A stretch of 64,000 bases of DNA from Escherichia coli (GCF_003334335.1 NZ_QOWQ01000021.1); one strand, 5' to 3'; numbered from the stretch's first letter, positions 20,750 through 37,869 are shown. Notes: generated by a model not told the origin, from the sequence alone. A program made the numbers and translations.

Positions 20750-20817
20750 GACATCATCCTTCCACTGTTGACCATGACAGGATGTTCAGTCGTCAGGCGT
20801 TAACGCGCGATTGGGGC

Positions 20818-34810: not shown

Positions 34811-35812
34811 TTACCCTCTATTGTCAAAGGGATTCAGTTCAACAGCAGCCTCTAAATGACCCGGCGCAAAGTGTGCATAACGCATAGTCATTTTTATATC
34901 GCTATGCCCCAGTATTTTTTGCAACACAAGAATATTTCCTCCCCGCATCATAAAATGGCTGGCAAACGTATGACGTAGCACATGAGTTAATTGTCCGTCA
35001 GGAAGTTCGATCTTTGCTCTCTTAATAGCGGCGTCAAAAGCCTCATAACATGGTGAAAAAAGCGCCCCGCGTTTTTTAGGAAGCATGGCCTGCAATTGAG
35101 GTGAAATAGGTACAGTGCGGTTCTTCTTTCCTTTGGTTTTAACAAATGTGATTCGTCCAGGCAGTATTTGAGATTGCTTTAATCCCTCTGCTTCACTCCA
35201 CCTGGCACCAGTCGCAAGCCCAATACGGACGACAACACCCAAATCTTTATTCCGTGACTCATCACATGCAATCAGAAGGCGTTCAATCTCATCTGCATAC
35301 AGAAACGCCTGTTCCTTTTCTTCCTCACGAAACTTGCGAATACCTGTCAATGGATTTTCACCAGACCACTCCCCAAGGCGCTTCAGTTCAGCAAAAACAG
35401 CATGTAAATATGACTGTTCGCGATTAACGGTTGCTTCACTAAGTTTTTTCTTCCCCTTTGGATTCCATTCACCTGATAACCGCCGCTCCCTGTAGATGGC
35501 AAACATATTTTTATCAAATTGAGAAGCAAACGGATCACCCAACCTAGAACAAATCGCCTCAAGTTTAGCCTTGCGCTCTTCACCGGAAGACAACGTTTTA
35601 CCGTACATTTCAAACCAGCGAGCAACCAACTCGGAAAGACGGGGGCCAGAACCATCCTGAAACTCGCCCCCTAAATTACCGTTCATTAAACGGCGCTCAT
35701 AAGAGAGCGCCTCACCTTTAGTAGCAAACTGCTTACGAATGCGTTTTCCTGCTGCTCCGTAGGGATAGCATTCACAGAGCCATTTACCAGTAGATAGTTT
35801 ACGAACAGACAT
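34811..35812 (-). CDS. int: P2-type tyrosine integrase
   Basis: Track ORF 34811..35887; start MSVRKLSTGKW aligns with the P2 Int N-terminus; catalytic R...HxxR...Y motifs (ATGARWSEA, HVLRHTFASH, MRYAHFAP). Confidence 0.9.
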   Translation of the reverse strand: MSVRKLSTGKWLCECYPYGAAGKRIRKQFATKGEALSYERRLMNGNLGGEFQDGSGPRLSELVARWFEMYGKTLSSGEERKAKLEAICSRLGDPFASQFDKNMFAIYRERRLSGEWNPKGKKKLSEATVNREQSYLHAVFAELKRLGEWSGENPLTGIRKFREEEKEQAFLYADEIERLLIACDESRNKDLGVVVRIGLATGARWSEAEGLKQSQILPGRITFVKTKGKKNRTVPISPQLQAMLPKKRGALFSPCYEAFDAAIKRAKIELPDGQLTHVLRHTFASHFMMRGGNILVLQKILGHSDIKMTMRYAHFAPGHLEAAVELNPFDNRG

Positions 35813-35846: not shown

Positions 35847-36104
35847 TTAAGATGGTTGCTCAACCCGCATAAAGAGCTTTTCATCAACTAACTGCTCCCA
35901 TTCATCGGGATCAAGCTCCCAAGAAGGAGCCGACATATCATCCTCATCCCCCTCATTTACAAAAGTAACCAAATAGAAAGGAAGATCTCCGGGCTCATCG
36001 TCATCGTCCTTGACAATATGAACATTAGTAACAACTATACGATTAGATGGATTAACTTTAGATACATATAAACCAATTAATGGAATTTGCGGATTAGTTA
36101 CCAT
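35847..36104 (-). CDS. hypothetical highly acidic 85 aa protein (cargo between repressor and integrase)
   Basis: ATG with upstream agagg SD; product has runs of D/E (VKDDDDEPGDLPFYLVTFVNEGDEDDMSAPSWELDPDEWEQLVDE); no family recognised. Confidence 0.6.
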   Translation of the reverse strand: MVTNPQIPLIGLYVSKVNPSNRIVVTNVHIVKDDDDEPGDLPFYLVTFVNEGDEDDMSAPSWELDPDEWEQLVDEKLFMRVEQPS

Positions 36105-36302: not shown

Positions 36303-36947
36303 TCAGAAAAGAACACTGCCTAATAAAACACCAACAACGAAACACATTCCTGTTTCTTTCGGGTATTTTCTAATTATTTGCTGAAAATTCATCTGTAATT
36401 GACTACCGGCAGAATTGTTGGCAGTTAATTTCTTTTCTCCTTCCACTGATTGTTGGTCTAACCAGGAAAGAGCCATCTGAAGCTGAGAACGAGTAAGATC
36501 GTTTAAGCGACCCGTTCCGAAATTGATATGGCAATAGCGGATAAGTTTTTGACGAAGCACTCCATCTTCACTATTACGAAGTAAAATACTTACAAGCGCC
36601 TTACGCGCATCATGATCTTTACATCGTTCAAGCATCGCACACAGAAAGCTCTCTGCGGTCTTATATTGATTCATTGTTATATCATCAATACTGTCTACAC
36701 CAATCTCTGCATGCAATTTTTGCCAAATAATAAACGCCTCGGTATTGCTGGCATCTACAATAGCAGCAACTAATCTATTTAATGCCTTCCGTTGCCCCTT
36801 AAGTAAGGGGCGTGGATCACTGTTATTGCTCGAAGGAATTGCGATATTGACGGTATGAGAGCCATCATATCGCCCTATCTGAATATTCTTTTCTTGGTAA
36901 TCTCGCCCAGCAATACGATTATCTGAACCGTTTGAGTTGACCGTCAT
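36303..36947 (-). CDS. hypothetical 214 aa protein with C-terminal hydrophobic anchor (cargo between repressor and integrase)
   Basis: Long ORF with good SD (ggaggtgg before ATG), C-terminal TM-like tail MCFVVGVLLGSVLF; N-terminus shares NRIAGRDY motif with the upstream repressor C-terminus. Confidence 0.7.
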   Translation of the reverse strand: MTVNSNGSDNRIAGRDYQEKNIQIGRYDGSHTVNIAIPSSNNSDPRPLLKGQRKALNRLVAAIVDASNTEAFIIWQKLHAEIGVDSIDDITMNQYKTAESFLCAMLERCKDHDARKALVSILLRNSEDGVLRQKLIRYCHINFGTGRLNDLTRSQLQMALSWLDQQSVEGEKKLTANNSAGSQLQMNFQQIIRKYPKETGMCFVVGVLLGSVLF

Positions 36948-36962
36948 GCCACCTCCTTGCTA

Positions 36963-37367
36963 TCACTTACCCTTTGTTTCGTTATAGTCACGGCCTGCGA
37001 TGCGGTTATTCCCGCCAGAGATATTTAACCCTCCCCCTGATGACTGACTCTCCTTTTCAGTGACTGCACCTTTCAAAGCACCAATCACCGCGTTTTTCAC
37101 ATCTAGTGAGGCACTCCGAAAACGTGTGATCAACTCCTGCTCATCATCGTTATAAGTTTCAGGTGAATGAATTCCCAACACGACATACTGAACATCAAGG
37201 CCAAAACGCGACAACGCTGATAAGTACGCCGCATCAGGAAAGCTATCCCCTTTCTCATATCTAAGTTGGGTTAACTTTTTAACCCCACCAATATCACTCA
37301 TAGCGACTTGGCTAAGACCCAGCCGTTCCCTTTCCTCACGCAACCGTTGGCCAATATCATTTTTCAT
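36963..37367 (-). CDS. XRE-family HTH repressor (immunity repressor, P2 C / CI equivalent)
   Basis: 134 aa; N-terminal HTH_XRE (IGQRLREERERLGLSQVAMSDIGGVKKLTQLRYEKG); leftward, divergent from the cox-like gene as in P2 immunity regions. Confidence 0.8.
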   Translation of the reverse strand: MKNDIGQRLREERERLGLSQVAMSDIGGVKKLTQLRYEKGDSFPDAAYLSALSRFGLDVQYVVLGIHSPETYNDDEQELITRFRSASLDVKNAVIGALKGAVTEKESQSSGGGLNISGGNNRIAGRDYNETKGK

Positions 37368-37376
37368 ACAAAAACC

Positions 37377-37405
37377 TTGACAGGTATCTTTTTTGATACC
37401 AAAAT
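37377..37405 (+). promoter_or_regulatory. candidate early promoter with embedded operator palindrome GGTATC-N6-GATACC
   Basis: TTGACA -35 hexamer, 17 bp spacer containing the perfect inverted repeat ggtatcttttttgatacc, then caaaat; lies between divergent repressor and cox-like genes. Confidence 0.5.
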
Positions 37406-37442
37406 ACTTTCATGAGCCATTAGATGAACACAATATACCACT

Positions 37443-37661
37443 ATGAAACAAGTTGTTCACGACACCAGATCACGGATTCCGCGTAACACAGCTACAGGAC
37501 CGCGACTGGCACTTCGATTGTCAGCAGAAGAGCGAGCCGTCATTGATGAAATGGCAACTAAAGAACAGCGCTCATCCTCTAACATGGCACGCATGATCTT
37601 CCTTCGTGGCCTTGAGATTATCCAGAAAGAGCAAAACCAATCTTCATGCTCAGGAGGTTAA
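37443..37661 (+). CDS. ribbon-helix-helix DNA-binding protein (Cox/Cro/Apl-equivalent first early gene)
   Basis: 72 aa; RLALRLSAEERAVIDEMATKEQRSSSNMARMIFLRGLE fits a strand-helix-helix pattern; first rightward gene after the repressor. Confidence 0.6.
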   Translation: MKQVVHDTRSRIPRNTATGPRLALRLSAEERAVIDEMATKEQRSSSNMARMIFLRGLEIIQKEQNQSSCSGG

Positions 37662-37665
37662 CGGG

Positions 37666-37869
37666 ATGCAAGGTATAACAATAAACATCAACGTTAATGC
37701 CCCTTACGTATCTCTGAAGAAATACGCCGAGATAACAGGCATTCCTCTTAACACATGCAAAAAGATGTTGGCTGACGGTCGAATTATTATCCGCCCCAAA
37801 CGCGCCAAAATGGAAAAACCAGAAGTAAACCTTATAGCTATGTTAAAAGACGCAATAGCCAACAGCTAA
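37666..37869 (+). CDS. small HTH regulatory protein (AlpA/excisionase-like fold, tentative)
   Basis: Internal Met of track ORF 37606..37869; YVSLKKYAEITGIPLNTCKKMLADGRI looks like a short HTH. Confidence 0.5.
   Translation: MQGITININVNAPYVSLKKYAEITGIPLNTCKKMLADGRIIIRPKRAKMEKPEVNLIAMLKDAIANS

Follow-up and report, generated by a model that had tools for sequence, protein, structure and literature searches.

The amyloid signalling motifs are defined by adjacent, collinear and closely spaced genes whose products share a motif of at least 15 residues, placed C-terminally in one protein and N-terminally in the other; these motifs are enriched in N, Q, G, V and I, depleted in K, P and L, and reported to be disordered (bioRxiv 10.1101/2020.01.06.895854). 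In HET-s/NWD2 and in BASS1/6 two pseudo-repeats of the motif stand against one copy in the other protein (bioRxiv 10.1101/2020.01.06.895854), and Bab/Agp (BASS11) is an abortive-infection system located at an E. coli prophage hotspot (bioRxiv 10.1101/2024.11.07.622273); neither of these papers mentions helix-turn-helix (HTH) proteins or repressors. Here we describe a gene pair with a similar arrangement at the immunity locus of a P2-like prophage, in a stretch of 64,000 nucleotides (nt) of Escherichia coli DNA (GCF_003334335.1 NZ_QOWQ01000021.1; “the window”, in which all coordinates are counted). A 134-residue XRE-family HTH protein, the putative immunity repressor of the prophage, ends in a peptide that reappears at the start of the 214-residue protein encoded by the next gene (“the partner”), and across related prophages each repressor tail matches the N-terminus of its own partner better than it matches those of other partners.

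Several other described systems resemble parts of this arrangement. In Bacillus subtilis the adjacent genes of SinI and SinR encode proteins of which SinI resembles the C-terminal association element of SinR and binds through it; that interaction is made by helical hooks and SinI is soluble, whereas the peptide described here is a disordered, beta-prone tail lying beyond the helices and the partner is membrane-anchored. The partner is not an antagonist homologous to a helical multimerisation domain, and the analogy with SinI is one of logic only. The P2 C and P22 C2 repressors have the HTH fold and the same position, divergent from cox-like early genes near int, but they lack both an N/G-rich tail and a motif-bearing membrane partner. 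Control of a repressor by aggregation or through a flexible C-terminal tail is familiar from RstC/RstR of CTX-phi and from the Mu repressor with ClpXP, in filamentous and transposable phages respectively; these systems occupy the same locus in the same kind of phage as some of the relatives considered below, but they are not known to have a sequence relationship to the present pair, a shared-motif partner or a membrane protein. Searches of the literature for the motif, for Flk_N, for membrane antirepressors and for this repressor-partner pair found no description in the searchable literature.

The longest substring common to the two proteins of the window is the octamer NRIAGRDY, and the likeness extends over about 17 residues, LNISGGNNRIAGRDYNE in the repressor and VNSNGSDNRIAGRDYQE in the partner; the repressor C-terminus reads ...NISGGNNRIAGRDYNETKGK (also given as ...GGGLNISGGNNRIAGRDYNETKGK) and the partner N-terminus MTVNSNGSDNRIAGRDYQEK (also given as MTVNSNGSDNRIAGRDYQEKNIQIGRY). 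When both proteins were shuffled 20,000 times with their compositions preserved, an eight-residue match never arose and a seven-residue match arose four times. The octamer is encoded by aac cgc atc gca ggc cgt gac tat in the repressor gene and by aat cgt att gct ggg cga gat tac in the partner gene, with a difference at the third position of all eight codons. A preliminary description of this locus had reported the shared octamer with these codons and had argued from them for selection on the peptide rather than a recent DNA copy, and both points are upheld by the wider data: among 13 cognate pairs from different lineages, the identical residues have the same codon in 56 of 133 cases, compared to 50.6 expected from independent choice, and both copies are conserved across the Enterobacterales. 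Since each copy chooses its codons independently of the other, the match between tail and partner is maintained at the protein level. Three explanations of the repeated peptide were rejected. A chance low-complexity match, which the preliminary description had itself raised against its proposal, is ruled out by the shuffles together with the family-wide conservation of both copies; a recent DNA duplication or gene conversion is ruled out by the independent codon use; and translational bypass or a read-through fusion was dropped, since the take-off and landing codons differ everywhere and a strong Shine-Dalgarno sequence and an ATG precede the partner.

The search for the motif across prophage repressors that had been proposed for this locus was carried out, and it revealed that the motif is conserved throughout the family and exists in a series of co-varying classes. 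Partner homologues in Escherichia, Klebsiella, Serratia, Erwinia, Kosakonia, Hafnia and Arsenophonus all start M.VNS.G..NR.AGRDF.EN.IQI..FDG.HT.NIAIPS, while repressor homologues end ..INVSG.GNR[IV]AGRD[YF].E.KK, and the R, G, D and E of the motif are invariant across genera. In 12 genomes, drawn from different species, the repressor and partner genes stand next to one another, and of 5,426 complete E. coli genomes 519 (about 10%) carry the module. The pair occupies the immunity locus in both P2-like and Mu-like prophages, with hosts among the Enterobacterales and Gilliamella. The span of both prophage types, the many classes of the motif and the membrane nature of the partner were all missing from the preliminary description. 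The only deposited phage record with the module is Escherichia phage 520873 (NC_049344, 2453-3065), in which the repressor tail is intact and the partner gene is broken into three frames and unannotated. A database search with the motif alone returned 8 short fragments and was uninformative.

More distant repressors, including those of Mu-like prophages of Pectobacterium and Gilliamella (identified by their rve transposase and AAA_22 genes), have differing G/N/Q-rich tails, and in each case a matching variant of the motif opens the downstream protein; the motif exists in about 20 sequence classes (examples in Table 1). The class-specific coincidences between tail and partner include FHS with FHS, GQA with GQA as against GQV with GQV, NRAAG with NRAAG, NRTAG with NRTAG, GNV..G.V and GD[IV].GRD. 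The preference of each tail for its own partner was evaluated by permuting the pairings: for 11 motif classes the summed cognate score was 459, compared to 287 +/- 29 for permuted pairings (p <= 1e-5), and for 23 tail classes, a set that includes the tail-less controls and the exceptions discussed below, it was 880, compared to 543 +/- 45 (z 7.5, p <= 5e-6). Two suggestions had been made from the window alone, an interaction motif common to both proteins and mimicry of the repressor tail by the partner, and each of them fits this co-variation.

Table 1. Repressor tails and partner N-termini of representative loci.
Locus	Repressor tail	Partner N-terminus
L016	QIFNGDISGQFAGNQIIN	QEFNGTAQGQFSSRDIIN
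L018	NT..GQIAGGNIY	NTAEQIAGRDIY
L020	QVFNSKVSGQVSAENIYN	QNFYGQVDQVAANNIYN
L089	QVFHGNVGQVVEGSITN	QDFHGDVGQVAAGDINN
L091	QVFHGAVSGGVAARDIIN	QEFQGNVDGGVAGRDIVN
L220	FHS	FHS
L269	IHGNVMGNVIKGNV	IKGDVGNVVSGSV
L271	PIGDIFGRDL	PVGDVAGRDI

The peptide is conserved while the proteins that carry it are exchanged. By a crude hydropathy scan, 44 of the first 46 partners have a membrane segment, and the bodies of these proteins vary from a Flk_N domain with a C-terminal anchor, as in the window, to a hairpin of two transmembrane segments (118-173 residues) without Flk_N and to bitopic proteins with a Cys-containing periplasmic end; that the partner body is interchangeable argues for motif-to-motif rather than motif-to-domain recognition. 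On the repressor side, the same tail is borne by different HTH domains (loci L104, L005 and L269), and the repressors of Gilliamella phages are 97-99% identical over their first 100 residues but only 41-67% identical in their tails, with different partners alongside. The divergence of these tails on near-identical repressor bodies indicates that specificity resides within the phage cassette and not in a host factor. Tail-less homologues of the repressor (P0221 and P0237, from other P2-like prophages) are also without a motif-bearing partner; integrase or unrelated open reading frames lie downstream of them, and in this they behave like P2 C and P22 C2.

Two further arrangements were observed among the relatives. 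In L104 (767-2801, Salmonella salamae) and in L054, two to three tandem HTH paralogues with differing HTH domains, each with an NR[VI]AGRDY tail, precede a single Flk_N partner, and several repressors may therefore share one partner. The bitopic partners of L086, L087, L091, L096 and L271 have a common periplasmic C-terminal motif, C.[FY].G..[YF].[VW]G...C, which is also present on the small protein of L231/L238 that lacks the N-terminal motif, and this end may be a periplasmic sensing domain.

Compared to SwissProt, the aligned motif segments are enriched in N (3.5x), G (2.1x), Q (1.3x) and V (1.3x) and depleted in L (0.08x), P (0.12x) and K (0.28x), while I, at 1.0x, is not enriched. The pairs share with HET-s/NWD2, BASS and Bab/Agp an N/G/Q-rich, L/P/K-poor motif of about 15-25 residues that joins the C-terminus of one protein to the N-terminus of the next across close collinear genes (here as local matches of 17-24 residues in 23 classes), the existence of many motif families, a membrane-targeted partner and a prophage setting; in a minority of lineages two pseudo-repeats may likewise stand against one. 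They differ from the amyloid pairs in that an XRE repressor takes the place of the NLR/STAND or TPR sensor, and in that the partner is a Flk_N/transmembrane or other transmembrane protein with no match to Bell or HeLo in Pfam or PADLOC. The polarity is also reversed, since here it is the membrane protein that has the N-terminal motif, and both proteins are probably expressed constitutively from the immunity operon.

The reading that we favour, and to which we assign about even chances, is that the two copies of the motif pair directly with one another in a homotypic docking interaction that couples the repressor to the membrane protein as an exchangeable cassette. The shared peptide, of about 17-20 residues, is N/G-rich and beta-prone and is predicted to be disordered on its own. 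The repressor has one copy at its C-terminal end, and the membrane protein encoded by the next cistron has one copy, in some lineages two, at its N-terminus, which would be cytoplasmic. In favour of pairing are the exclusion of chance for the window pair, the family-wide conservation of both copies, the match of tails to their own partners, the independent codons, the interchangeable membrane-protein bodies, the divergent tails of the Gilliamella phages, the joint absence of tail and partner, the single-chain protein P0374 described below, and the composition and predicted disorder, two properties also reported for amyloid signalling motifs. The copies would dock strand to strand as a beta-zipper, at the extreme as a cross-beta stack of the amyloid-signalling type, and would in this way tie the repressor physically to an inner-membrane protein, the tail and partner forming an accessory cassette added to an otherwise ordinary XRE repressor. 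Most probably the partner would then set the amount of free repressor by sequestering, stabilising or antagonising it, as SinI does SinR, and the lysogeny switch would gain a membrane-linked input. The outcome could be sequestration or antirepression, stabilisation, or a membrane effector guarded by the repressor.

A number of observations weigh against direct pairing of the two copies. Structure prediction gives it no support: in an AlphaFold2 (AF2) model of a 1:1 repressor-(GGGGS)5-partner fusion, computed with a paired alignment, the HTH domain and two helices of the repressor are folded (helices at 2-107) and the Flk_N helical bundle and terminal helix of the partner are confident, but both motif segments have a predicted local distance difference test (pLDDT) score of about 30, with no strands and no structure, and a concatemer of the tail and the N-terminus reaches a pLDDT of 42 with short strands only. 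Within the NRxAGRDY class no fine residue-by-residue co-variation was found; position 3 of the motif varies in the partner (I, V, L, A, T, N, S) as against I or V in the tail. There are also loci in which the association is incomplete: in L198/L199 the tail is present and the downstream gene encodes a secreted protein without the motif, in L231/L238 the tail is likewise present and is followed by a small bitopic protein without the motif, and in L268 the motif is present without an upstream HTH gene. Finally, no literature or homologue of known function bears on the outcome, and PADLOC matches no partner.

If the pairing were of the true amyloid, prion-like kind, one protein would nucleate a cross-beta fold that templates the other, with the repressor as sensor and the membrane protein as an effector of killing or exclusion; this is a sub-case of homotypic pairing with the opposite flow of information, the effector serving in abortive infection, in superinfection exclusion or as an addiction-type toxin restrained by the tail. 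We regard it as unlikely, but it draws on the same operational signature by which the BASS motifs were discovered (a C-/N-terminal motif of at least 15 residues in collinear genes a few nt apart), on the fitting composition, on the many hypervariable classes, on the two pseudo-repeats in the membrane protein as against one in the repressor in some lineages, like HET-s/NWD2 and BASS1/6, and on the precedent of Bab/Agp at an E. coli prophage hotspot (bioRxiv 10.1101/2024.11.07.622273). The double repeats are nevertheless in a minority: two xxGRDx cores, 15 residues apart, occur in 10 of 261 unique partner N-termini, while 64 of 65 core-bearing tails have a single core. Neither an NLR/STAND sensor nor a Bell/HeLo effector is present, the polarity is the reverse of that expected, the AF2 concatemer is of low confidence, PADLOC gives no match, and two proteins that are constantly made together in the lysogen are a poor fit for a switch of the trigger type. 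By the same tentative reckoning, in P2-like, Mu-like and possibly filamentous phages the immunity repressors might be wired to membrane proteins by a diversifying motif of the amyloid-signalling type acting as a templated cross-beta switch, which would either inactivate the repressor (membrane-triggered induction) or fire the membrane effector when the state of the repressor changes (repressor-guarded abortive infection or exclusion).

Homotypic pairing would not be needed if a common third party, such as a protease or adaptor (ClpXP, Lon, FtsH/RseP) or a phage antirepressor, read both copies, in which case the partner would be a decoy or competitor that tunes the turnover of the repressor and the peptides would never touch. 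The tails are disordered and end in a basic cluster reminiscent of the C-terminal ClpX recognition signals of the MuA type, and the Mu repressor undergoes tail-controlled degradation by ClpXP. The membrane proteases FtsH and RseP are reported to degrade phage 186 CII (PMC7708051). We consider this reading improbable, since a host factor leaves the roughly 20 cassette-specific classes unexplained, several of them within one host genus on repressor bodies that are 97-99% identical, and variation of this kind speaks against the reading of both copies by a host factor; moreover, consistent linkage to a third gene is absent, what follows the partner being variable, and the partner copy is without the basic end. 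A relic without any interaction, left by repeated fissions of all-in-one HTH-motif-membrane proteins in which the junction was duplicated and each copy then kept separately, for example as a flexible linker, is in our judgement very improbable. One such single chain does exist, P0374 (L267, 2531-3250), which has an HTH domain, a G/N-rich segment at the junction and Flk_N, without a membrane anchor, in the divergent regulator position of an inovirus-like contig (Rep_1, Phage_DNA_bind), but it is the only fusion found and its match is marginal (E 7e-4); many independent fissions would be needed, each duplicating the same segment, and linkers are rarely conserved to the point of invariant R, G, D and E across genera. 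The suggestion that had been made from the window alone of processing at the Ala-Gly bond, as in LexA/CI-type self-cleavage, did not survive and we give it hardly any credence. The dipeptide is present in both window copies and nearly invariant in NRxAGRDY tails, but in other classes it is replaced by SS, SA, EG, AS or AA with the pairing kept; in the repressor it lies about 10 residues from the C-terminus and not in an inter-domain hinge, the Pfam search of the 134-residue chain detected HTH domains only and no S24 peptidase domain with its Ser-Lys dyad, and the prophage part of the window (34811-64000) contains no match to the LexA-box consensus CTGT-N8-ACAG, the sole match, at 20765, being in host DNA. 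Nor is an SOS-controlled antirepressor evident there.

The designation of the HTH protein as a prophage immunity repressor is a probable one based on its HTH_31/HTH_3 and phrog_8/4/3 matches, on weak matches to P22 C2 (by sequence) and P2 C (by fold), and on its divergent position beside the integrase; it has an HTH_XRE domain and lies near int, divergent from a cox/cro-like early operon. The HTH domain occupies residues ~5-65 and is followed by two helices (~74-107) and a disordered tail (104-134), the chain stopping 27 residues past the last helix. A Foldseek comparison of the fusion model with the PDB gave HTH hits only, all of them weak, to SinR, P2 C and P22 C2 (the best, E 0.025, to SinR/SinI, 1b0n), and none for Flk_N. 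At least two K or R residues are present within the last 7 residues in 133 of 150 unique repressor tails, and K and R together make up 36% of those last residues, compared to 14% in the protein body.

The partner has the attributes of a Flk_N domain protein, namely PF27202 on all close homologues, a match to a local hidden Markov model, and an AF2 bundle with a terminal helix. It would be tail-anchored, and its N-terminal motif would therefore face the cytoplasm. The organization recalls that of Flk (RflH), a regulator of flagellar export in Salmonella and E. coli, in which a Flk_N helical domain is also followed by a C-terminal membrane anchor, and a profile search with the partner recovers true Flk proteins as distant relatives; but true Flk has a Pro-rich MQP.SGP... 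start, two Flk_N repeats and about 330-400 residues, and it has neither the beta motif nor a repressor neighbour, while the partner, with its one Flk_N domain, scores 57.8 bits against the NCBIfam Flk equivalog model (NF007987), the cut-off of which is 353. The segment formed by residues 21-38 is a recognisable second motif copy (..FIGRDLVNISIP) in some lineages and is degenerate in the window. The partner gave no match in the local Pfam release, its profile gave none among PDB sequences, PADLOC matched no defence family for any partner type, and the PHROGs that partners matched are families of unknown function or are labelled only “membrane protein”. In P0347 a Flk_N-like segment is joined to an N-terminal region that resembles Rha/Ant, and partner residues 51-132 show a weak match to phrog_245, the PHROG labelled “anti-repressor Ant”; phage antirepressors may have the Flk_N fold as well.

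The prophage, which is P2-like (Peduoviridae, Xuanwuvirus-type), adjoins yecA and extends from 34.8 kb to past 62 kb of the window. On the minus strand the order of genes is integrase, DUF8087 open reading frame, partner and repressor, and the Arc-like and Cox-like genes that diverge from 37443 are the context that marks this as an immunity switch (Table 2). The short gap between the repressor and partner genes and the strong Shine-Dalgarno sequence AAGGAGGT make co-transcription and coupled translation likely, and the lysogen probably produces both proteins at the same time; the two genes of related loci are mostly spaced by -4 to +34 nt. Promoter-like sites are present on both strands of the control region, in a number that does not exceed chance expectation. 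The antisense open reading frame that RefSeq calls opposite the clear Arc-like repressor gene is likely a mis-annotation. What lies between the partner gene and the integrase varies: DUF8087 in the window, DUF2511 in E. coli prophages of 85% identity and, in other loci, further open reading frames for membrane or secreted proteins (L003 and L004-L015 were compared). This slot looks like a moron insertion site.

Table 2. Features of the immunity locus, by position in the window.
Feature	Position	Strand	Basis or remark
Integrase	34811-35812 (as annotated)	-	marks the prophage left end beside yecA; context
DUF8087 open reading frame	35847-36104	-	prophage left end; context
Partner gene (214 residues: N-terminal motif, Flk_N helical domain, C-terminal membrane anchor)	36303-36947	-	phrog_5825, E 5.6e-92; PF27202, precomputed
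C-terminal transmembrane anchor, partner residues 198-214	36306-36356	-	hydropathy scan; helix 355-372 of the fusion model
Flk_N-type helical domain, partner residues ~44-168	36444-36818	-	local hidden Markov model; all helical in AF2, pLDDT ~90
Second beta-prone segment NIQIGRYDGSHTVNIAIP, conserved, partner residues 21-38	36834-36887	-	homologue alignment
Motif copy 1 of the partner, VNSNGSDNRIAGRDYQE, residues 3-19	36891-36941	-	pLDDT ~30; family consensus M.VNS.G..NR.AGRDF.EN
NRIAGRDY in the partner, residues 10-17	36897-36920	-	
Spacer between repressor and partner genes, 15 nt	36948-36962	-	Shine-Dalgarno AAGGAGGT 5 nt upstream of the partner ATG
Repressor gene (XRE-family HTH, 134 residues)	36963-37367	-	Pfam HTH_31/HTH_3; phrog_8/phrog_4/phrog_3
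K/R cluster closing the repressor tail	36966-36977	-	
Repressor tail motif LNISGGNNRIAGRDYNE, residues 114-130	36978-37028	-	followed by the basic end TKGK
NRIAGRDY in the repressor, residues 121-128	36984-37007	-	
Control region, divergent, between the repressor gene and the early Arc-like/Cox-like genes	37368-37442	.	gene arrangement
Arc-like early gene	37443-37661	+	phrog_3431, E 2e-28; annotation of phage 520873
Antisense open reading frame, 45 residues	37457-37594	-	RefSeq hypothetical protein on near-identical (99.9%) DNA
Cox-like early gene	about 37666-37869	+	phrog_575, E 6e-27; annotation of phage 520873

P2-like and Mu-like prophages are not SOS-inducible, and how they detect the moment to leave their host is poorly understood; a conserved but fast-diversifying peptide linking the master repressor with a membrane protein would provide a concrete input to, or output from, the lysogeny switch. 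If the pairing is of the amyloid-signalling type, the reach of that mechanism would widen from immune sensors of the NLR type to transcription factors and to common enterobacterial prophages, and no earlier amyloid signalling module would have had a transcription factor as its basis. The many orthogonal classes of the motif could in addition supply a natural set of short docking peptides for use as specific tools.

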